Virus record (IMG/VR): IMGVR_UViG_3300028549_001461
Coordinates: 97,222-161,221 of that record
DNA from: a virus
Length of the DNA stretch: 64,000 nucleotides
Strand: one strand, 5' to 3'
Of this stretch, positions 1,277 to 63,294 are shown piece after piece. The notes beneath the pieces were generated by a model. It did not search any database. It saw nothing but the letters and a program-made list of their open reading frames with translations, and was not told where the DNA came from. Both the position numbers and the translations under genes were made by a program. How positions within the stretch are numbered: the stretch's first letter is position 1; each line of letters begins with the position of its first letter.

Positions 1277-2026
1277 ATGAGTAAATTTCAGTCGGCGTGG
1301 TCTGGCGTGTTTAAAGAGCTAGATGTTGTAAATCATGTAAATGCTTATGGTTTTTTAGATGTTACTTCTGATAAGCTAAAAGAGATTACTGGAGAAGAGT
1401 CAAGATTATTGGCTAAAATGGATAATAGAAAGAAACAACCAGCAGTTATGCGAGAAAATAATATATCTTTACTTGCAGTTAAAAATGGTAGATATAGGTT
1501 TACTAAAGAAAACCCATTTATTGCTATACCAGACATTTCAAATATGCGTGTTTATCCTATTAAGAAAATGGAAGGTTTGCTGACTTTAGATAAGTTTAGT
1601 AAAGATACTAAAACTGAAACTATGGCTTTAGACTTAGCACATTACAATAGTATATTAGACGATTGTTTTGGTGAAAAAGTGTCTTTAACACTTCGTAATA
1701 AGCGTAGAGCTTCTTTTAAATTTAAATTGGGAAGAACTGATTTTGATGTAGATAAAGTACAAATAGAAGTTGATGGTTGTTATGAAGGTGCTAAAGGAAT
1801 ACATATTGTAGAAGCTAAAAATTCGGATGAAAAAGATGCTACAATTCGTCAACTACTTTATGCTAAAAAGATGATTACTGAAGTAATTAGAGGGGAGAAA
1901 CCTGTTTATGCTTGGCTAATGGTGTATGATAGAAAAACAGGTGTATATAATTTTCATAAATTTTTAGAAGGTAGTAATAGATACTACTTTGATGTTGCAC
2001 AGAGCAAGAGATATGTTTTAAAATAA
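1277..2026 (+). CDS. Putative type II restriction endonuclease-like protein (PD-(D/E)xK)
   Basis: ESRLLAKMD N-terminal motif and QIEVDGCYEG...VEAKN catalytic-like motif; directly downstream of dam. Confidence 0.6.
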   Translation: MSKFQSAWSGVFKELDVVNHVNAYGFLDVTSDKLKEITGEESRLLAKMDNRKKQPAVMRENNISLLAVKNGRYRFTKENPFIAIPDISNMRVYPIKKMEGLLTLDKFSKDTKTETMALDLAHYNSILDDCFGEKVSLTLRNKRRASFKFKLGRTDFDVDKVQIEVDGCYEGAKGIHIVEAKNSDEKDATIRQLLYAKKMITEVIRGEKPVYAWLMVYDRKTGVYNFHKFLEGSNRYYFDVAQSKRYVLK

Positions 2027-2472: not shown

Positions 2473-3503
2473 TTAAATTGATAAAAGGTAAAATAAACAT
2501 ACTTATTGATGGACAATTTGGTTCTACTGGTAAGGGTTTATTTGCAGAGTACTTATCTGATTTGGACATACAGATTGCCATTACTAACGCTGGCCCTAAT
2601 TCTGGTCATACCTTCTCTTTTAAAGGTGCCAAACAGGTAACAAAACAGTTACCTGTTACTGGCATACTTAATACAGATAGTATAATTTACATAACTCATG
2701 GATCCATAATTGAGCCATCAACCTTTTTTAAGGAACTTGAGTTATTTAATATAGCTGCCGAAAGAGTAATTATAGATCCAAGAGCTACTGTTGTTCATGA
2801 TAAAGATATATTCGCAGAGGAAGCAAGCAACTCTTCTTTTACTAATATATCTTCTACCCAGAGTGGTGCTGGTAATGCTTTATCCAGAAAAATTCGTAGA
2901 GAAGGAAACATAGCTGGTAATTACAACGCTTTTTCTGTATTTACGAAACCCTTTAATTTGGAACATAATCTGAATTCAGGTAAACTAGCTTTGATGGAAG
3001 TTCCACAAGGTTTAGGCTTATCTTTAAATTCTAAATTTTATCCCTACTGTACAAGCAGAGATATTACAATAGCAAACTCTCTAAATGATTGTGGTGTGCA
3101 CCCATATTATCTTGGTAAGGTCTTAGTATGTCTACGTACTTTTCCTATACGAGTTGGTAATCTAATTTCCAATTGTTCTGAAAATTCTTACAAAGACACA
3201 GGCACCACATGTGCAACTATTAATTATTCTGGGGATTTTTATAGAGACAGTGTGGAAACCACATGGGATGCCATAGGAGTTCCTAAAGAATATACTACTA
3301 ATACTAAACGTGTAAGAAGAGTGGCTACTTTTTCATATGAGCAATATAAAGATATGCTAGTTAAATTAAGGCCTGATTATGTATTTTTAAATTTTTGTAA
3401 TTACCTAAGTGAGGAAGAGTTATCTAGGTTATTAGACAATTTACCACTAGTAACCCACCTTGGTTTTGGAGATACTGTGGATAAAATTGTTTCAATAAAT
3501 TGA
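2469..3503 (+). CDS. purZ: PurZ-type adenylosuccinate synthetase homologue
   Basis: GQFGSTGKG (Ser where PurA has Asp in GDEGKG), FYPYCTSRD, RTFPIRVG, TTxTKRVRR, FLNFCNYL. Confidence 0.8.
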   Translation: MIKLIKGKINILIDGQFGSTGKGLFAEYLSDLDIQIAITNAGPNSGHTFSFKGAKQVTKQLPVTGILNTDSIIYITHGSIIEPSTFFKELELFNIAAERVIIDPRATVVHDKDIFAEEASNSSFTNISSTQSGAGNALSRKIRREGNIAGNYNAFSVFTKPFNLEHNLNSGKLALMEVPQGLGLSLNSKFYPYCTSRDITIANSLNDCGVHPYYLGKVLVCLRTFPIRVGNLISNCSENSYKDTGTTCATINYSGDFYRDSVETTWDAIGVPKEYTTNTKRVRRVATFSYEQYKDMLVKLRPDYVFLNFCNYLSEEELSRLLDNLPLVTHLGFGDTVDKIVSIN

Positions 3504-4510: not shown

Positions 4511-4906
4511 ATGGATGCACAGAAGGCTAAAGCTCTTACTAAAAGTACCTTAGATACCAGACGTAAAAAAGAGTTATCTGAAAAAAAAGCTAAGGCTGCC
4601 GCTAGAGAAAAGAGACAACAGCGAGAAGCCATTGAGGTTACAGAGTATATCAAGAAGCATTTAGATGTTGACGTAACTTCTGCTGCTAAAAAAGGTAAAT
4701 CTGATATTTGGTATCATAAGGATGATTTTAAAAACTACTTAGATGAGTATACTTTGCATAGTCAATATATACAGCCTTTAACAAAGTACTTAAAAGATAA
4801 AGGCTTTAAAGTAGAATATTTTTCTGATGACTCAAAATCAGAAACATCTGACATTGACTATCAAGGTTATATTGAAGTTACCAGAAGTATCCACATTTCT
4901 TGGTAG
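4511..4906 (+). CDS. Hypothetical protein
   Basis: ORF track; ATG at 4511 after GAGG; ends TAG TAA. Confidence 0.6.
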   Translation: MDAQKAKALTKSTLDTRRKKELSEKKAKAAAREKRQQREAIEVTEYIKKHLDVDVTSAAKKGKSDIWYHKDDFKNYLDEYTLHSQYIQPLTKYLKDKGFKVEYFSDDSKSETSDIDYQGYIEVTRSIHISW

Positions 4907-4934
4907 TAACTTTACTTTAAAAGGTACTTAATAA

Positions 4935-5177
4935 ATGTTGAAAGATTACTGTGATTGTGGTAAAATAGCCACATGGTTATATATGCCAAGTTATTCAGGA
5001 CCACAGCATAATGACTTTTATTGTGATGAATGTGTCCCTAGGGGATGTAGCTGTAATTTAGAATGTAAAGATGGAAACTGTGACAACCAAGCACCAGATA
5101 ATTGGTACCAACCCATTGATGAACAAGGAAGAAAATATCCTTGTTGTGAATATTTTTATATAGGAGAATTAACATGA
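4935..5177 (+). CDS. Cys-rich hypothetical protein
   Basis: CDCG, YCDECVPRGCSC, YPCCEY. Confidence 0.6.
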   Translation: MLKDYCDCGKIATWLYMPSYSGPQHNDFYCDECVPRGCSCNLECKDGNCDNQAPDNWYQPIDEQGRKYPCCEYFYIGELT

Positions 5178-5464
5178 AAGTAAGATGTAAATTTTGTTGT
5201 AATACGGATGGCACTACTTGTAATTTAAAAGGTTTTAAAGTAGGTCAAAATAAATCAAGAATTTGTGATGACTTTTTGTTGGATCAAACAACTATCAAAC
5301 AGCCTTCCAAAATGGAAGCCACCTATACTCCGTATCATCTACGAAGTAAAAAAGCGTATAAAGCACACTTAAAAGAAGAGCAACAAAATAGGGTTACTAC
5401 CAGTCCTACATTAACTATACCTGATTGCCTATCTAAATACCGTGCTACTGTACCGCAAGATTAA
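5174..5464 (+). CDS. Hypothetical protein
   Basis: ORF track, overlapping start/stop with upstream gene. Confidence 0.55.
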   Translation: MKVRCKFCCNTDGTTCNLKGFKVGQNKSRICDDFLLDQTTIKQPSKMEATYTPYHLRSKKAYKAHLKEEQQNRVTTSPTLTIPDCLSKYRATVPQD

Positions 5465-45081: not shown

Positions 45082-46035
45082 GTGAGGAGCTCTATGAAAG
45101 ACCTAGCAATAATTTCGGGAAGTTCTAATATACCTTTAGCTACAAAAATTAGTAACATTTTGGGAATCCCACTTACTAAAGTAGTTACTACTACTTTCGG
45201 TAATGGTGAATGTAGAGTAGAAATCAGTGAGAATGTTCGCAATAAAGACGTATTTGTTATACAAAGTGCAAGCAATTCAACGAATGACCATTTAGTAGAG
45301 TTGCTTCTTATATTGGACGCTCTTAGAAGGTCAAGCTGCTACAGAGTAACCACAGTTCTACCTTGCTTTCCTTATAGTAGACAAGATAGAAAAGTTATGT
45401 CGAGGGTGCCAATATCTGCAAAGCTTGTAGCTAACCTAATAGCTACTGCTGGTACAGACAGGGTGCTTACCAGTGAATTACACAGTCCTCAAATATCTGG
45501 TTTCTTTGATATTCCTGTAGATAACCTACATATGTTTAATATATTTGTACCACACATTAGAGATAAACATCCAAACAATAACATTTGTGTAGTTGCCCCG
45601 GATGCTGGTTCTATTAAAGTTGCCAAAAGTTACGCTGGTAAACTTGGGTGTGGTGTTGCTATGATATACAAGCAGCGCACAGGCCCATCAGAAATAGGTG
45701 AGATGTTTTTAATTGGTGAAGTGAGAGGAAAACATTGCATTATAGCGGATGATATGGTAGACTCTGGAGGTACGCTTGTAAAAGCTGCTAATTTACTTGT
45801 AGCTAATGAAGCGGCATCTGTAGAGTGTTACTGCGCCCATCCTGTACTAAGTGGTAAAGCTTTTGATACTTTAGAAAGATCTTATATTGAGAAATTGTAT
45901 GTTTCCGATACAATTAATAATACACGTATAAAAACTTCAACTAAAATAGAGATACTTTCTGCTGCACCTTTATTCGCTGAAGCTATAGATGGCATCTATA
46001 ATGAACAAAGTTTAAGCTACTTATTTGATAATTAA
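45082..46035 (+). CDS. prs: Ribose-phosphate pyrophosphokinase
   Basis: FGNGE, PYSRQDRK, ELHSPQISGFF, VAPDAG, DDMVDSGGT; likely start 45094. Confidence 0.95.
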   Translation: MRSSMKDLAIISGSSNIPLATKISNILGIPLTKVVTTTFGNGECRVEISENVRNKDVFVIQSASNSTNDHLVELLLILDALRRSSCYRVTTVLPCFPYSRQDRKVMSRVPISAKLVANLIATAGTDRVLTSELHSPQISGFFDIPVDNLHMFNIFVPHIRDKHPNNNICVVAPDAGSIKVAKSYAGKLGCGVAMIYKQRTGPSEIGEMFLIGEVRGKHCIIADDMVDSGGTLVKAANLLVANEAASVECYCAHPVLSGKAFDTLERSYIEKLYVSDTINNTRIKTSTKIEILSAAPLFAEAIDGIYNEQSLSYLFDN

Positions 46036-57092: not shown

Positions 57093-57545
57093 CTATTTAT
57101 AATAAACCAAAGCATTAAACTTACCAAGTGTTTTATCTACAATTTTTTCGACTACGCTCCAATTACCACCTGCAAGACCACAACCAATTTTTGGTAATCT
57201 TATTTCCCAAGTACTATACTTTTCAGCAACAGTAGCCATGCACTTTTCTATAGCTTCATACTCAGCATATAGTCTGTTGTCTCTTCCGTAATAATATTGT
57301 GTGTAACAATTAAGAATATGTAAGTTATCAGAAATAACTGCAGTACTAAAAGTACCTAATTTTTTTCTATCTCCTCTAATTGTTTGTGTTATATCAGCAG
57401 TGTACACTTGAGGAAATTTATTTTTTAAATATTTTGCTATCCCAGAGCCCATGGTGTGGAAACAGTTACATCCGTGAAGAATTACTGTTTTCTGATTATT
57501 GATATCTAAATTACTCAATATATCAGCTTTAATTGTGTTTATCAT
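57093..57545 (-). CDS. Macrodomain (ADP-ribose processing) protein
   Basis: HGCNCFHTMGSGIA, NCYTQ, PKIGCGLAGGNW. Confidence 0.88.
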   Translation of the reverse strand: MINTIKADILSNLDINNQKTVILHGCNCFHTMGSGIAKYLKNKFPQVYTADITQTIRGDRKKLGTFSTAVISDNLHILNCYTQYYYGRDNRLYAEYEAIEKCMATVAEKYSTWEIRLPKIGCGLAGGNWSVVEKIVDKTLGKFNALVYYK

Positions 57546-57553
57546 AATAATTA

Positions 57554-58297
57554 TTAACTCCTTATAGAATAGTTCCAGCCTAGTTTCGTGTGTATAGCTT
57601 CAAAAAAAGATGTAAATTTAACTAATTTAATTATGATATCACTTTTAACTATAGTCATATTGTACAATGTGTCTTCAAAAACAGGTACACCATCTATATT
57701 TATCTCTGCTTTCTTAGATGTTCTTAGTGTTAATTTAGATGTATCTGAAATTATCAATGGCCGGGCTGCTAAAGAGAAAGGACATATAGGCGCAATACTT
57801 ATTACGTTTGTATTTGGTTGAACTATAGAGCCACCTGCAGACAAATTATATGCTGTTGATCCAGACGGTGTTGAAATAATAACTCCATCACCTTTGTAAT
57901 TTAGATTATTATCATCTACTTTTAATTGTATATCAAACAATTGACCTCTTTTTACAGCCTGTACAACTACTTCGTTAAAGCCTACAAATTCTTTATTTTC
58001 AATAATAATTTTTAAAACACTTCTGTTTTCTATTTTTGATTCATCAGGATTTTTAAGGAACTCCATAACTTGCTTTTTAGTTATATCATTAGATAAAAAA
58101 CCAACATGTCCTGTGTTAATACCAAGTATAGGTATATGTGTCATGTCATTTTCTATTAGTAGTTGACTAGCTCTTAGTATAGATCCATCTCCACCATCAA
58201 CTACAAAAATACCAGCTTGTTTAATATTATTTACTCTGTCTGGGCCATTGATATCTGTGCAAGGAATTGCTTGTCCATTAGTGTAGTAGTCTAACAT
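57554..58297 (-). CDS. NAD kinase
   Basis: GGDGS, GINTGHVGFL, NE, GDG, STPSGSTAYNLSAGG, IDG. Confidence 0.9.
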   Translation of the reverse strand: MLDYYTNGQAIPCTDINGPDRVNNIKQAGIFVVDGGDGSILRASQLLIENDMTHIPILGINTGHVGFLSNDITKKQVMEFLKNPDESKIENRSVLKIIIENKEFVGFNEVVVQAVKRGQLFDIQLKVDDNNLNYKGDGVIISTPSGSTAYNLSAGGSIVQPNTNVISIAPICPFSLAARPLIISDTSKLTLRTSKKAEINIDGVPVFEDTLYNMTIVKSDIIIKLVKFTSFFEAIHTKLGWNYSIRS

Positions 58298-58694: not shown

Positions 58695-58800
58695 GTAATA
58701 CTACCAGTATCACTGCCTACAGATTTGACAGATCTTGTAATTCGTAGACTCACTGGTAGTATTACCTATGCGGATACTCAAAGTAGCATAGTCTTGTCAG
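58695..58800 (-). ncRNA. Candidate structured RNA (14-bp stem, K-turn-like loop, possible pseudoknot)
   Basis: GTAATACTACCAGT/ACTGGTAGTATTAC perfect inverted repeat plus CTATGC/GCATAG hairpin. Confidence 0.45.
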
Positions 58801-58847
58801 TTACTATACTACTTTTATACCCTCTGAATTAATTTTATTCAGTTATT

Positions 58848-60197
58848 TTAAAAACTAGTAACACGGTCCAATTCTGCTAGAGCAGAAGCTCTTAACTGTT
58901 CAAAACAATACTGCCTATAAAACATACCATTTTTCCATACAAGTGGTAGATTTAAATTATCAAATCTTCCGCGCTTACTCTTTTTCCAAGGCGCATCAGA
59001 AGGTTCTTTAAATACATCGGCCCAAGCATATTGATCATCTTCACCTGCTTTAAAGATTGCAGACATTTTCATGGCATATTTATAGGTGTCTCTATTTACT
59101 TGTTGTAAAGATCCTCCTCCCATACCAAAAGCAACATTATCTGCAGACCAACCAGCATTTGTAATTGTTTCTAAAACTTTTCTAATATCATCAGGGCCGT
59201 TTAAACCATCACCTTGAATAACACGTATACAGCTTGGTAAGATTTTATAGCCCTTACTATTTATAATAGTACCAAAACATTCACCAAGTTGTTCAAGGGT
59301 ACGAAGAACAATCTCAGAAGGTTCACCAGAATCTGGGCGAACTACAAGAGTTCCACCAGATTGTACAATCCTATCTTTAAATTCACCACCCCAGTATTTA
59401 AGTATTGCGTTACTCAGGTCATAACTATCAGACACAACAGCTACAATTGATCCTGGTTTCAAAAACTGATTTAACATGTTTTCATAAGCATCTCTTTCGA
59501 ACTCACGGCCCCATGCAGTTATTGTACTGTGCTCTGCAGCATTGATGCTAAAGCCAAGCATAGCATCAGTGTTGTAGTAATCCTGAGCTTCAAAGATTCC
59601 AGCAACAGTATCAGTACCCATAGAGGTAAGTAACTCAGCAGAAGCACCAATACCAGCAGATTCTTCGGAACTTACACCACGATAACCAAAAGAATGTAGT
59701 TTAAATGGTGCTTGTTCAGGAGTACCAGTTTTCTTCAAGTATTCAAGAATAACTTTCTTGCACTCAAATTGTTTGGTAGCAACAGTAGTAGGATACCATA
59801 ATTGTAACAGACGTGTTTCTACCCATCCAGGAAGCCATCCAAAACGGTCGTCAGTGGATTCAATTGTTACTTGTACCTCTTTAGTCTTAACTAATTTACC
59901 TTCTTCTACAGCATGAATTTCAAGCGGATAATAACCAAGTTTTACAAGATCCAGCCAACCCTGTTTATTAAATTTAACACCATGTTCTGCCCAAAATTTT
60001 GCAGCTTTTTTGACTTCTTTTTTGGTTACCATTTTTGTAAGTAACCGTTTAATGATAGCTTGAAGACCAAAGAATAGTACTTCTTCTGCACCACCTCTGG
60101 ATTCAATATAATAATAACTTCCACGATTTTCAGGGAATTGTAGATAATGACTTACCTTGTAACTATCAGTTGTAAAAACTAAGTTTCTTTTTTTCAT
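58848..60197 (-). CDS. nadV: Nicotinamide phosphoribosyltransferase
   Basis: TDSYKVSH, YIESRG, WYPTTVAT, AAEHS, VSDSYD, RPDSG, IQGDG, FGMGG; start placed at 60197 after AGGGAG. Confidence 0.93.
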   Translation of the reverse strand: MKKRNLVFTTDSYKVSHYLQFPENRGSYYYIESRGGAEEVLFFGLQAIIKRLLTKMVTKKEVKKAAKFWAEHGVKFNKQGWLDLVKLGYYPLEIHAVEEGKLVKTKEVQVTIESTDDRFGWLPGWVETRLLQLWYPTTVATKQFECKKVILEYLKKTGTPEQAPFKLHSFGYRGVSSEESAGIGASAELLTSMGTDTVAGIFEAQDYYNTDAMLGFSINAAEHSTITAWGREFERDAYENMLNQFLKPGSIVAVVSDSYDLSNAILKYWGGEFKDRIVQSGGTLVVRPDSGEPSEIVLRTLEQLGECFGTIINSKGYKILPSCIRVIQGDGLNGPDDIRKVLETITNAGWSADNVAFGMGGGSLQQVNRDTYKYAMKMSAIFKAGEDDQYAWADVFKEPSDAPWKKSKRGRFDNLNLPLVWKNGMFYRQYCFEQLRASALAELDRVTSF

Positions 60198-60200
60198 GTT

Positions 60201-60232
60201 TGTTCTCCCTTGCATCAACGCATCTAGGATTT
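60201..60232 (-). promoter_or_regulatory. SD-sequestering hairpin motif upstream of nadV
   Basis: AATCCTAGATGCGTTGATGCAAGGGAGAACA; near copy at 61570-61603. Confidence 0.55.
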
Positions 60233-60675
60233 TTATTTGTACTACTCTGGTTTTACTGTCATTTCAAGGGTATTGTCTACCCATTTCGTTTTTGAGTCAT
60301 TGCAATTCATATAGGAAACATCAATAGCTACTTCATATCCTAGCCAATTACCAAGGTCTTGTTCTCCTTGGTCACTGTACCAAGCTACGAATGCTTCAGC
60401 TTGTTCCTTTGTTTCAAAACCTTTTATTAATACTTTTGGCATATTTACCACCAACCTTTAGATAGTCTTTCATTTTCTTGTAAAATTTCTTTAGCTATTG
60501 CTAACTCTTTCTCTACTCGGTATTTGCAATTTTTTGCATGACCTTTGAGACGACCATTTATTTCAGGGCTACTTCTTTTACAACACAAACAGCAATAATA
60601 AGGATTATCTCCGCCTATAGGCTCTGTAGGATAATTATTATCATATTCTATTTCTTTCTGTCTTTTCATATACTG

Positions 60676-61569
60676 TTAACTCTTGCTTATAAGTAATAAA
60701 TGATTCATCATCTCTAAATGTTCAGGAACGATATATTGCATGATGTCACCAGTAAAATCAAACCATCTGAGTTCATGTATGTCATCATCTGGTTCAGGTG
60801 TTCCTGATTTTATAGTGGCAGTATGAAGTATCGTAGTGATTTTATCTCTTTCGCCCTTATATCTCCAATCAGTAGACGGAAAACTATCGATGTATTTAAT
60901 ATTTTTTAGTATTAAATGAGTTTCTTCATAAGCTTCCCTTGCTACAGCCTCAGATACTTTTTCCGAATTCTGTATAAAACCACCAATGAATCTATACTGT
61001 GTCTCTCTTGATTTTCTTCCTAAAAGGATTTTTGAAAATAGATCATCAAATATAGCAACATCAATTGTAAATTTAGGAGAAGGCCATTGATTTCCCATAG
61101 CCCAAATAGCACCAGCTCTAAAATCTTTTGTTACATTAGAACGTATGGCAACTTGTTTTCTTATTTCAGTTCCTGAGTAATATGTTTCTTGAACTAATTC
61201 TTTAGTCTGAAATTTGCCATTGTAATAAGGTATAAAAGAATCCCTGCTTCCATATAAACATACAGTTTGTTCTGGACCGATGAAACTTTTAATTTTGTCA
61301 TCGAGATCTTTAGACCATAATTTATCATCATGTACATCTTTGATATAGACTATGGTGGCTTTAGGAAAATGTTGTTGGATCATGGCTCGTCTAGATTCAA
61401 AATCCAAAGGATTATTGAAAGTACACTTGCAGTGAGAAAGACCTACAAAAATTATAAGTCTATTGTGAGATTGCTCTACTGTTGAGAGCAGTTTGAGATG
61501 GCCTTCATGGAGATCGTCTACTTGAAAACGACCAATTACTACACCTACGTCTGCGCTTTTTTCTTTCAT
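60676..61569 (-). CDS. Bifunctional NMN adenylyltransferase / Nudix hydrolase (NadM-Nudix, NatV-like)
   Basis: GRFQ..LHEGH, NPL, GSRDSF, SGTEIR; Nudix GGF...AREAYEET. Confidence 0.88.
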   Translation of the reverse strand: MKEKSADVGVVIGRFQVDDLHEGHLKLLSTVEQSHNRLIIFVGLSHCKCTFNNPLDFESRRAMIQQHFPKATIVYIKDVHDDKLWSKDLDDKIKSFIGPEQTVCLYGSRDSFIPYYNGKFQTKELVQETYYSGTEIRKQVAIRSNVTKDFRAGAIWAMGNQWPSPKFTIDVAIFDDLFSKILLGRKSRETQYRFIGGFIQNSEKVSEAVAREAYEETHLILKNIKYIDSFPSTDWRYKGERDKITTILHTATIKSGTPEPDDDIHELRWFDFTGDIMQYIVPEHLEMMNHLLLISKS

Positions 61570-61603
61570 TGTTTCCCCTTTCGCATCATTGCATCTAAGG
61601 ATT
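61570..61603 (-). promoter_or_regulatory. SD-sequestering hairpin motif upstream of NMNAT-Nudix
   Basis: AATCCTTAGATGCAATGATGCGAAAGGGGAAACA immediately before ATG. Confidence 0.55.
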
Positions 61604-61989
61604 AATAAAATATGTGATACTACAATACTGTACTACAATAGCACAGTTACTTAATTAGAGGTACCAAAAGATTTTTTAGTATTTGTGAACCTTCCGAAAG
61701 TATCACCCATTTAACTTTTTTTATTGACTTGCTTGGATTCCCACTCTTTATACACATCATTGGGTATTACACAAAACATATCATCTAACACTACTGATGA
61801 GACGGAATCTATAGTTTCCCCCATAGCTACTACTTCTTTTTCTATTCTACTTAACATCTCTTTCATCATACCGAAAAGTTCTGCTGGAGTTGGTTCAGCT
61901 TCTTCAGAATTCAAATAATCAGGTTTATATTCTTCACTCATAGTTCATCTCTCTATAAATTTTTAAAGTGTGCTTTTTCTTACAAGTGT

Positions 61990-62916
61990 TTAATCAAACC
62001 AATTAATACCGCTGACTTCAAAATCAGTTGTATTACCTTCATTATTTAGAATTACTTGATGCCATTTTGTGTATTTTATTGTCTTGTGATCTTTATGTCT
62101 TACACAACCTCGCACGAAAACTTCTTTTTTTCTAATTGAATAAATTGGTTTTACTACGGATAAATCTTTATTTTTATTAGCCCATTTTGAAGATTGTGCT
62201 TCGACGATAATTTTTTCTTTGTCCGGTAATACTACTAATTCATCAGCTATATGAGGATTACCTTTGGGTTTTCCAGCGTGTTTGCCTATGCTTTCTTTTT
62301 CTAAAACAAAGATACGTTTCTTGTCTAACAACAAATTTAAAATATCTTCTTGTTCTTTTGTAGCTTCAACAAAAAACCACTCACCTTGTCTTCCAGGTGT
62401 CATTTTACGAGCACCTTCATGGAATAAAACTGTATTACCTAATTGTTTTTTAGCTTCAATTATATTTGTAACACCTGTATTTAACTGAGCAATAAAAAGT
62501 TGACGTTCATCAACACCCATTAAAAAATGCCGGGCTCTTCCAGAAGTTTTTCTGGTAATGATGAAATGTCTTGCTGTTTCTTTAAATTTAACTTTGGCAT
62601 TTATTAAATTGTTTCTAACAATATCTGCATTATATCTTTTTCTTTCAGTTACTTCAAATTCACGTTCTTTTTCTTTAACAAGTAGTAATACTTGTTTTGA
62701 TTTTAAATCAGTGTCAAGAATTTGTGCGTAATTTTTTGAATTTCCTTGGTAGATCTCAAACCATTCTGTACGTCTTGTTCCTTTAACTTCCCTTTTAATA
62801 GTCATTTGAAAAATTTCTTTATTTACTCTCCTGACTAAAGGTTTATCACTAATTTTTAAGATTAGACCTACTTCATAAAATCGTTTTACTAAACTGTTTT
62901 TCATGAGTATCTCCAT
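61990..62916 (-). CDS. Hypothetical phage protein
   Basis: FLMGVDER, RQGEWFF, VRGCVRHKDH motifs. Confidence 0.65.
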   Translation of the reverse strand: MEILMKNSLVKRFYEVGLILKISDKPLVRRVNKEIFQMTIKREVKGTRRTEWFEIYQGNSKNYAQILDTDLKSKQVLLLVKEKEREFEVTERKRYNADIVRNNLINAKVKFKETARHFIITRKTSGRARHFLMGVDERQLFIAQLNTGVTNIIEAKKQLGNTVLFHEGARKMTPGRQGEWFFVEATKEQEDILNLLLDKKRIFVLEKESIGKHAGKPKGNPHIADELVVLPDKEKIIVEAQSSKWANKNKDLSVVKPIYSIRKKEVFVRGCVRHKDHKTIKYTKWHQVILNNEGNTTDFEVSGINWFD

Positions 62917-63158: not shown

Positions 63159-63294
63159 TGCCTCGTGGTAGATTCGAACTACCGTCTTTCTTTTATCATA
63201 AGAGAAGTAACCATGCTATACACCACTTGTTTTATTAAACAAGGGAACTAGTTAACAAGGTGGCTTAATGCTCTACCAATTGAGCTAACGAGGC
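63159..63294 (-). ncRNA. tRNA-shaped RNA with ~80-nt structured insert in place of the anticodon arm
   Basis: GCCTCGT/ACGAGGC acceptor, GCTC-AATTGGTA-GAGC D arm, GGTAG-TTCGAAT-CTACC T arm. Confidence 0.75.

Follow-up and report, generated by a model that had tools for sequence, protein, structure and literature searches.

A bulged hairpin ahead of phage NAD-salvage genes is a conserved leader RNA and probably a control element of NAD+ reconstitution

The described RNA elements closest to the one reported here are two riboswitches of nicotinamide adenine dinucleotide (NAD+) metabolism. NAD+-I, the nadA motif, consists of two tandem bulged stem-loop domains, each carrying a ACANCCCC bulge (PMC7297122), and is restricted to Acidobacteria, where it lies upstream of nadA (PMC6859854, PMC7297122). 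NAD+-II, the pnuC motif, is built from P1, P1a, and a pseudoknot with the ribosome-binding site (RBS); it occurs in Streptococcus before pnuC and has 43 unique representatives (PMC7749635). In phages, the NAD+ reconstitution pathway NARP2, composed of Nampt and NMNAT/Nudix, has recently been recognized as a counter-defence that overproduces NAD+ and drains phosphoribosyl pyrophosphate (PRPP) even in the absence of defence, and the text of the paper describing it makes no mention of a riboswitch, untranslated region (UTR), or promoter (10.1101/2024.02.11.579819). Here we analyzed a window of 64,000 nucleotides (positions 97,222 to 161,221) from the IMG/VR virus record IMGVR_UViG_3300028549_001461, which is 161,221 bp long, has a GC content of 32.7%, and is estimated to be 61% complete. 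In this window, the same bulged hairpin precedes nadV, which encodes a nicotinamide phosphoribosyltransferase, and natV, which encodes a nicotinamide mononucleotide (NMN) adenylyltransferase fused to a Nudix domain. The bulged hairpin is a real, structured leader RNA that is specific to NAD-salvage genes and lies far beyond chance, and it is probably a control element for the pathway that phages use against NAD-depleting bacterial defences.

Comparing the hairpin with the two riboswitches, it becomes apparent that general layout is shared and architecture is not. Like NAD+-II, it is a small 5′-UTR element of an NAD-pathway gene that draws the RBS into its fold and is predicted to turn expression off, and both are represented by a few dozen unique sequences with a narrow host range. 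However, it is a single bulged hairpin with the Shine-Dalgarno (SD) sequence in P1 and no Rfam match, and it occurs in phages before natV, nadV, or pncB. Likewise, NAD+-I and the phage hairpin both place a bulged stem-loop beside the SD sequence of an NAD biosynthesis gene and follow an OFF logic, whereas the phage hairpin has one domain, an AGA bulge, and a conserved P2 and loop, again without an Rfam match. An earlier reading of the window made from its letters (the sequence-only reading) had judged the hairpins unlike the known NAD riboswitches, in agreement with the missing Rfam match and with the lack of the defining features of NAD+-I and NAD+-II. No Rfam model matched any copy when positions 60150-61700 were searched by cmscan at E ≤ 10 and seven related loci at E ≤ 1; elsewhere, at gathering and permissive thresholds, only tRNAs and chance snoRNA and miRNA matches were returned. 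In addition, nothing relevant was found in the full-text literature on nadV, natV, or NAMPT in combination with riboswitch, hairpin, or RNA motif. The bulged hairpin is therefore in no catalogue or paper that could be searched and is probably a new control element.

In the nadV copy, the outer stem P1 is formed by UCCU (60229-60226) and AGGG (60210-60207), and it encloses the bulge AGA (60225-60223), the two P2 strands UGCG (60222-60219) and UGCA (60214-60211), and the loop UUGA (60218-60215). The 3′ strand of P1, AGGG, constitutes the first four bases of the SD sequence AGGGAG, and the ATG lies at 60197. Similarly, in the natV copy, UCCUU (61601-61597) pairs with AAGGG (61580-61576) inside the SD sequence AAGGGG, upstream of the ATG at 61569. 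The inner part of this copy comprises AGA (61596-61594), UGCA (61593-61590), the loop AUGA (61589-61586), and UGCG (61585-61582), followed by a 3′ junction of one nucleotide, A 61581. The P2 helices of the two copies differ by G-U/A-U and U-A/U-G exchanges, and RNAfold returned the bulged hairpin as both the minimum free energy (MFE) and the centroid structure of each copy. The sequence-only reading had described the same SD-occluding bulged hairpin ahead of both genes, and both of its strings are found on the minus strand in agreement with the MFE fold; its six-nucleotide nnTGAT loop is better drawn as NNGA, four nucleotides long, with one more P2 pair, the fourth (G-U or A-U), closing it. 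That the hairpin does not precede the two small open reading frames (ORFs) between natV and nadV, the NAD kinase gene, or prs was also borne out, by a search with covariance model R1 and, for the last two genes, by inspection of the upstream sequence. The NAD kinase gene, being devoid of the hairpin, represents a negative control inside the same pathway. The core AGATGCNNTGATGC is present at two sites only in the whole 161,221-bp record, over which the covariance model scored the two copies at 36.7 and 40.7 bits and the next-best match at 13 bits. A near-identical copy lies ahead of nadV in the closest relative (L169).

The sequence-only reading had proposed a motif search with covariation upstream of phage nadV and natV genes. 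IMG/VR and JGI metagenomes were scanned with a natV profile, independently of the RNA, and the loci were then searched with covariance model R1, which was built from 12 copies; a single-protein natV query against IMG/VR returned nothing, and an alignment query was needed. This yielded 43 distinct copies (duplicates removed) from about 22 phage contigs; every copy is on the gene strand, and compensatory changes occur in both stems. The gene directly 3′ of the element is natV for 21 copies, nadV for 18, a pncB-type NAPRTase for three, and a radical-SAM gene encoding a 270-aa protein for one; the pncB products are bona fide NAPRTases with the Pfam domains NAPRTase and NAPRTase_N. Between carriers, NatV and NadV are only 43-50% identical, and the core has nevertheless been kept across phages with such diverged enzymes, which implies selection on the element.

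Among the nadV relatives in IMG/VR, one is close (74% identity), and the same element precedes both its nadV and its natV. When all IMG/VR was scanned for the exact pattern, 81 loci were obtained, and nearly all of them were coding DNA. One exception was a further, higher-GC phage contig with copies ahead of natV and nadV, whose enzymes are only 43% identical to those of the window; the outer stem of its nadV copy differs (CCAAA/UUUGG) but likewise ends in the SD sequence. The true matches in two such scans were located ahead of natV or nadV only, and looser pattern scans of IMG/VR brought in no further gene classes. Pattern matches in coding DNA were rejected on inspection, for example L128 inside a methyltransferase ORF, as were L123-L137, which lie ahead of an unrelated 127-aa gene. 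Occurrence before unrelated genes genome-wide, which would have spoken against a salvage-specific element, was not observed: in five whole phage records (562 kb), the matches above 30 bits were ten natV/nadV copies only. The next matches in these records, at 23 and 21 bits, both fell within ORFs and were rejected. In the GTDB database, scanned with one genome per species (185,579 bacterial and archaeal), there were 30 pattern matches against a rough chance estimate of about 20; none was ahead of an NAD-salvage gene and none (0/30) had pairing flanks. The cellular genomes of these 185,579 species thus appear to hold no credible copy.

The consensus structure consists of P1, the 5′ bulge AGA, a 4-bp P2 (UGCR/UGCR), and an NNGA loop that occurs as UUGA, AUGA, UAGA, GUGA, and AAGA. 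The core, AGAUGC-NN-(U/A)GAUGC, is nearly invariant, with 10 positions identical across the 43 copies and the AGA bulge present in 40 of them; the highly conserved positions, about 14 in number, cluster in the bulge, P2, and the loop. P2 is 95% paired and was recovered independently by RNAalifold. Two of its four pairs show double changes, namely the second pair from G:C to U:A (L172, L173, and L185) and the third from C:G to U:A (L202), while the first and fourth pairs toggle between U-A and U-G and between G-U and A-U, respectively. P1, on the other hand, is variable, with 2-10 bp of free sequence and an A-rich 3′ junction. Because the length of this junction varies from 0 to 5 nt, RNAalifold, working on an ungapped alignment, misses P1, which was therefore assessed by permuting the flanks: cognate flanks gave a pairing score of 10.7 versus 8.3 ± 0.4 for permuted ones, and none of 2000 permutations scored as high, relatedness being ignored. 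The number of distinct P1 pair types is sounder evidence than this permutation. At least 10 kinds of complementary pairs were found, including UCCU/AGGA, CUCU/GGAG, CUCC/GGAG, CCAAA/UUUGG, AGCC/GGCU, GGCU/AGCC, CGUC/GGCG, UGACUU/GAGUCA, AUUCC/GGAAU, and AUCUC/GAGAU. Inspection of the flanks by eye, without a formal test, showed no pseudoknot partner for either the loop or the bulge.

The position of the element relative to expression signals suggests how it would act. The SD sequence overlaps the 3′ strand of P1 in 31 of the 43 copies and lies 1-3 nt past it in four, whereas seven natV copies sit 80-130 nt upstream of the start codon. In four of these seven (L193, L196, L197, and L234), the element starts just after a sigma-70-like promoter site, which in L193 reads TTGACA-16-TATTAT with TG (11/12 matches). 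The four leaders end in a strong terminator hairpin (-10.6 to -17.5 kcal/mol for L193, L196, and L197) followed by U5-8, directly before the SD sequence, the U tract of L234 being shorter, with four U; these terminators, having 9-nt loops, were missed by a terminator scan and were verified by folding. In all four leaders, the 5′ arm and loop of the terminator are a near-perfect reverse complement of the element core. The duplex between core and terminator arm reaches -15.6 to -26.1 kcal/mol, with z scores of -4.4 and -5.9 for one pair of leaders and of -2.5 and -2.9 for the remaining pair. Mutually exclusive folds are therefore supported in both layouts, by the SD sequence within P1 and by the core's complementarity to the terminator arm. 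Judged from this anatomy, the unclamped element could serve as an antiterminator strand, and the clamped element would free the terminator. The SD-type and terminator-type layouts agree in predicting that a stabilized hairpin is the OFF state of the gene, and in the window, stabilizing the hairpin most likely represses translation. In the attenuator-like leaders, a CUUCAG segment can also pair alternatively with CUGAAG beside P1 or with the SD/AUG region. The copies of L146 and L148, 80-110 nt upstream of the natV start, were considered as terminator type and rejected, because aptamer and terminator are not complementary there; the platform of these two is another one, with an anti-SD segment rich in pyrimidines.

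The sequence-only reading had suggested a translational operator or minimal riboswitch that turns on NAD repair when NAD falls or ADP-ribose rises. A conserved, structured, and strand-specific cis element of NAD-salvage genes that occludes the SD sequence is what the comparison upholds. Both platforms imply that the genes are on when the element is unbound and off when it is bound, which would fit activation upon a fall in NAD if the signal reports NAD sufficiency. The anatomy is harder to reconcile with a ligand, such as rising ADP-ribose, whose binding turns the genes on, unless that ligand pulls a repressor protein off the RNA.

As to what stabilizes the hairpin, we favor, at a probability of about 0.45, a cis leader RNA that is read by a phage protein and turned off on binding, with NatV as the best candidate; the identity of NatV as the reader is speculative. 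As the bare hairpin is weak (about -6 kcal/mol; mean over copies, -5.9 kcal/mol), the default would be an open ribosome site from which NadV and NatV are made. A trans-acting reader would then grip the unpaired AGA together with the loop GA and thereby clamp the hairpin, so that P1 is locked, the SD sequence is hidden, and translation stops; in the relatives with terminators, clamping would instead free the terminator. With NatV as the reader, the circuit would exert feedback control over NARP2, the PRPP- and ATP-consuming pathway that rebuilds NAD+, and this control might be modulated by the enzyme's own ligands.

A protein reader is favored, in the first place, because the element is a plain hairpin in which a 4-bp helix separates the conserved bulge from the conserved loop. 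Protein operators typically have this layout, which suits a single ligand pocket poorly. Well-known RNAs of this kind include the iron-responsive element (IRE) bound by the iron regulatory protein (aconitase), the T4 gene 43 and regA operators, the E. coli thrS operator, and the leaders attenuated by PyrR and TRAP. By analogy, the phage hairpin resembles the IRE in its conserved bulge and loop across a short helix and the gene 43 and thrS operators in its overlap with the RBS. It may also resemble PyrR and TRAP targets, as some members would act as anti-antiterminators whose stabilization lets the terminator form. The model would be an enzyme that regulates its own synthesis. However, the hairpin has no sequence relationship to these operators, and NatV, a candidate reader only, has no known RNA-binding activity. 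The other grounds for a protein reader are that the sister leaders have no more in common than a short unpaired AGAY or AGAUA, as is typical of a sequence-reading protein, that leader type partitions with NatV subfamily, and that the cellular genomes scanned lack a credible copy.

The sister leaders comprise two further types. The pentaloop leader (class B), found ahead of nadV and of natV of the GRFQPFHNGH type, has a covarying 7-10-bp stem and a RUAGA(C) pentaloop and lies 15-25 nt 5′ of the SD sequence. In many cases, another small hairpin comes next and contains the SD sequence, for example GGAG-AUAGA-CUCC, GGA-GUAGA-UCC, or AAUAAA-GGAGA-UUUAUU. Whole contigs of 30-327 kb contain 1-3 matches each, most of them in the natV-nadV region, with one further match in the 257-kb record, and the pentaloop leader has no match in Rfam. 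No copy of either leader type was found in the cultured or GenBank phages KVP40, Mx1, RsoM2USA, Ci1, and Tunturi_5 or in the huge-phage records LR756502, LR745206, and LR756500 (three of the four that match natV). Class B and the bulged hairpin are alike in their genes (natV/nadM-Nudix and nadV), in position, in having one copy per gene, and in presenting an unpaired AGA. They differ in fold and are mutually exclusive, and the stems of class B vary freely, whereas P2 of the bulged hairpin is almost invariant. The bulged hairpin is absent from pentaloop loci, and the pentaloop model R2 detected nothing at the NAD genes of the window or in 94 loci with window-type natV. Every carrier of the bulged hairpin has a GRFQVDxLH-type natV, most carriers having been found through natV; leader type partitions with NatV subfamily, the pentaloop with GRFQPFHNGH and the bulged hairpin with GRFQVDxLH. 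In L036, a 323-kb contig, nadV is seemingly split into two ORFs (2712-3410 and 4597-5300), the second of which is preceded by the pentaloop hairpin CCCGAAG-AUAGA-CUUCGGG and an SD-in-loop hairpin.

The third leader type is frequent ahead of window-type natV genes that lack the bulged hairpin. It consists of a stem (ACC/GGU, AUCC/GGAU, AUUC/GAAU, or ACGU/ACGU) that closes a 10-12-nt loop beginning with (N)AGAUA(C/A), and its 3′ strand lies in or next to the SD sequence. An upstream hairpin with the loop UGAUUU(U/A)GAUAA is also seen at these loci. AGATA is the most enriched 5-mer, being present in 42% of 85 natV/nadV upstream regions versus 9% of 449 controls, which were other upstream regions of the same loci, with relatedness ignored. 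The leader types, with their different folds, have only the short unpaired AGAY or AGAUA in common, and the recurrence of this segment in several folds on the same genes points to a wider, uncatalogued regulatory system.

Several observations weigh against a protein reader. No RNA-binding domain is evident in NatV, for which Pfam gives NMNAT and Nudix domains only. The leader and natV are physically linked, so that their co-partition could be plain co-inheritance, and about two thirds of the loci with the same NatV subfamily have no bulged hairpin. Moreover, most copies were found by searching around natV homologues, which makes the co-occurrence with natV partly one of construction. The hairpins of the window are weak, at -6.0 and -6.8 kcal/mol with z scores of -1.0 to -1.3 versus shuffles; stability at a z of about -1 is uninformative, and therefore the case rests on comparative data rather than on thermodynamics. 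Finally, three enzymes of one pathway together with SD-type and terminator-type platforms are a classic metabolite-riboswitch signature, and the near-invariant P2 sequence could equally reflect a ligand pocket.

A direct metabolite riboswitch, constituting a third NAD-pathway class, is the alternative that survives best, possible although on balance unlikely. The AGA internal loop and the P2 region would be the binding site of NAD+, NMN, or a related nucleotide, whose binding would stabilize P1 and turn the gene off, and NadV and NatV would be made only once the host NAD+ pool is depleted. Such a switch would account for a regulon of three enzymes of one pathway (natV, nadV, and pncB) in diverged genomes, for the approximately 14 highly conserved positions in the bulge, P2, and loop, and for the location of the element at the 5′ end of the transcript. 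Its SD-sequestering and terminator/antiterminator platforms and OFF logic are like those of NAD+-I and NAD+-II, and 43 unique representatives is also the number that defined NAD+-II (PMC7749635). Feedback would pay as well, since NARP2 overproduces NAD+ and uses PRPP (10.1101/2024.02.11.579819). However, the element measures only ~27 nt, no junction or pseudoknot was detected, and its bulge and loop cannot easily form one pocket. The short linear AGAY/AGAUA that the sister leaders share in quite different folds would be unusual for one aptamer class, and the element was neither found in the cellular genomes scanned nor matched by the Rfam NAD riboswitch models. Against ligand binding by the naked RNA, the simple fold and the variety of the sister leaders weigh weakly. 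We consider it rather doubtful that the hairpin is the aptamer of a phage-borne third NAD+/NMN riboswitch that senses defence-drained NAD+ in cis, without a protein; were this so, NAD+ reconstitution would be switched on only after Thoeris, SIR2, DSR, or similar systems drain NAD+.

The two readings differ in what they would add. If the RNA itself is the reader, it would found a new class of riboswitch, for a cofactor that is rarely served by the riboswitches known. NatV as the reader would be a new example of metabolic enzymes that moonlight as repressors of translation. A dedicated RNA switch for each gene would account for the way in which phages contain the cost of NARP2, and the leader hairpin would be a compact, portable, and possibly NAD-responsive regulatory part.

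The hairpin could also have no dedicated reader and act as a constitutive attenuator, as an mRNA-stability or RNase site that sets a temporal class, or as a site for a general host RNA-binding protein. A hairpin on the SD sequence must damp initiation somewhat, phages use SD-targeting nucleases such as T4 RegB, and a possible promoter box ahead of each copy in the window suggests a common expression class. We regard this as improbable, because a fixed attenuator would have no need to keep bulge, stem, and loop sequences invariant among phages with enzymes less than 50% identical, because the element, with two copies in 161 kb, is confined to NAD genes rather than to a temporal class, and because the conserved complementarity to terminator arms implies switching between two folds. 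A site acting at the DNA level, either an operator of the NrtR, NiaR, or NadR type or a promoter element of NAD genes, has very little in its favor. Control by NrtR, a Nudix-related repressor that binds DNA, is classic for bacterial NAD salvage genes (nadV, prs, and nadM-Nudix), and the element lies near possible promoters. However, its conserved core is a direct repeat and not a dyad as in an NrtR-type operator, all 43 copies are in sense orientation at a distance fixed to the SD sequence rather than to a promoter, and the nadV copy of L147 lies over the stop codon of natV, within an operon. In addition, the flanks vary freely yet keep their complementarity, a pattern left unexplained by selection for DNA binding. 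Chance or a recent local 5′-UTR duplication without function, as might be argued from only two copies in the window, an expectation of 0.24 for the pattern with 3 mismatches, and unremarkable fold z scores, is refuted by the comparative data: about 22 contigs, with proteins that have diverged strongly, carry this element ahead of these genes, and it shows compensatory changes.

Table 1. Coordinates of the leader elements and of the genes around them (window positions unless a locus is named)
Feature	Position	Strand	Basis or remark
Leader hairpin copy 1 (nadV)	60205..60229	minus	sequence, MFE fold, covariance model R1 36.7 bits
Leader hairpin copy 2 (natV)	61575..61601	minus	sequence, MFE fold, covariance model R1 40.7 bits
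nadV, nicotinamide phosphoribosyltransferase (NAMPT), 449 aa	58848..60197	minus	Pfam NAPRTase 6e-43, NAMPT_N 2e-19
natV, NMN adenylyltransferase-Nudix fusion, 297 aa, GRFQVDDLHEGH subfamily	60676..61569	minus	Pfam NUDIX 8e-13, CTP_transf_like 5e-4
Two small ORFs (74 aa, about 66 aa) between natV and nadV	60242..60669	minus	no informative family
NAD kinase, same cluster	57554..58297	minus	Pfam NAD_kinase_C 2e-26
prs (ribose-phosphate pyrophosphokinase)	45082..46035	plus	PF13793 1.6e-45; outside the cluster, 15 kb away
Direct repeat ATTGTAGTA x2	61617..61645	minus	15-25 nt 5′ of the natV hairpin
Single AGTAGTAC	~60239-60246	minus	ahead of the nadV hairpin
Bulged hairpins ahead of pncB	L193:1168-1205, L196:2054-2091, L197:3438-3475		
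Bulged hairpin ahead of radical-SAM gene	L170:4079-4117		
Attenuator-like leaders	L193:35-215, L197:2311-2495, L196:~450-640, L234:~1400-1590		promoter-like site, bulged hairpin, middle hairpin, terminator, natV SD
Pentaloop leaders	L005-L039, e.g. L012:2943-2967, L015:2953-2977, L039:2943-2967 and 1821-1845		
Third leader type, upstream of natV	L186:~2420-2480, L201, L204, L216, L190/L194/L213		

All genes between 57.5 and 64 kb of the window lie on the minus strand, and a megablast search of the region against GenBank phages gave no match. The N terminus of nadV is set by the alignment to homologues, which starts from the ATG at 60197. In addition to the repeats listed in Table 1, which lie 15-25 nt 5′ of both hairpins, a GTAGTA(T/C) box occurs at ~58806-58813 and ~58698-58705 (minus strand), ahead of the next small genes, and on the minus strand of the genome this box is 2-3 times more frequent than expected. 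The GTAGTA(T/C) box is possibly a phage promoter element, which would put the leader starts near each hairpin.

Among the neighboring genes, a 308-aa ORF just upstream of natV (61990-62916, minus) has no Pfam or PHROG match and is not prs. A 150-aa ORF after the NAD kinase gene (57093-57545, minus) matches the phage phosphatase family phrog_335 (1.5e-50) and may belong to the NAD(P) cluster. Radical-SAM genes, which adjoin nadV in KVP40, are also present in the window at 55.1-56.4 kb. A tRNA-like element is located at 63159-63294, in the same neighborhood as natV, and in L145 (2307-2459) and L147 (1796-2365), a tRNA gene cluster ends directly 5′ of the natV hairpin.

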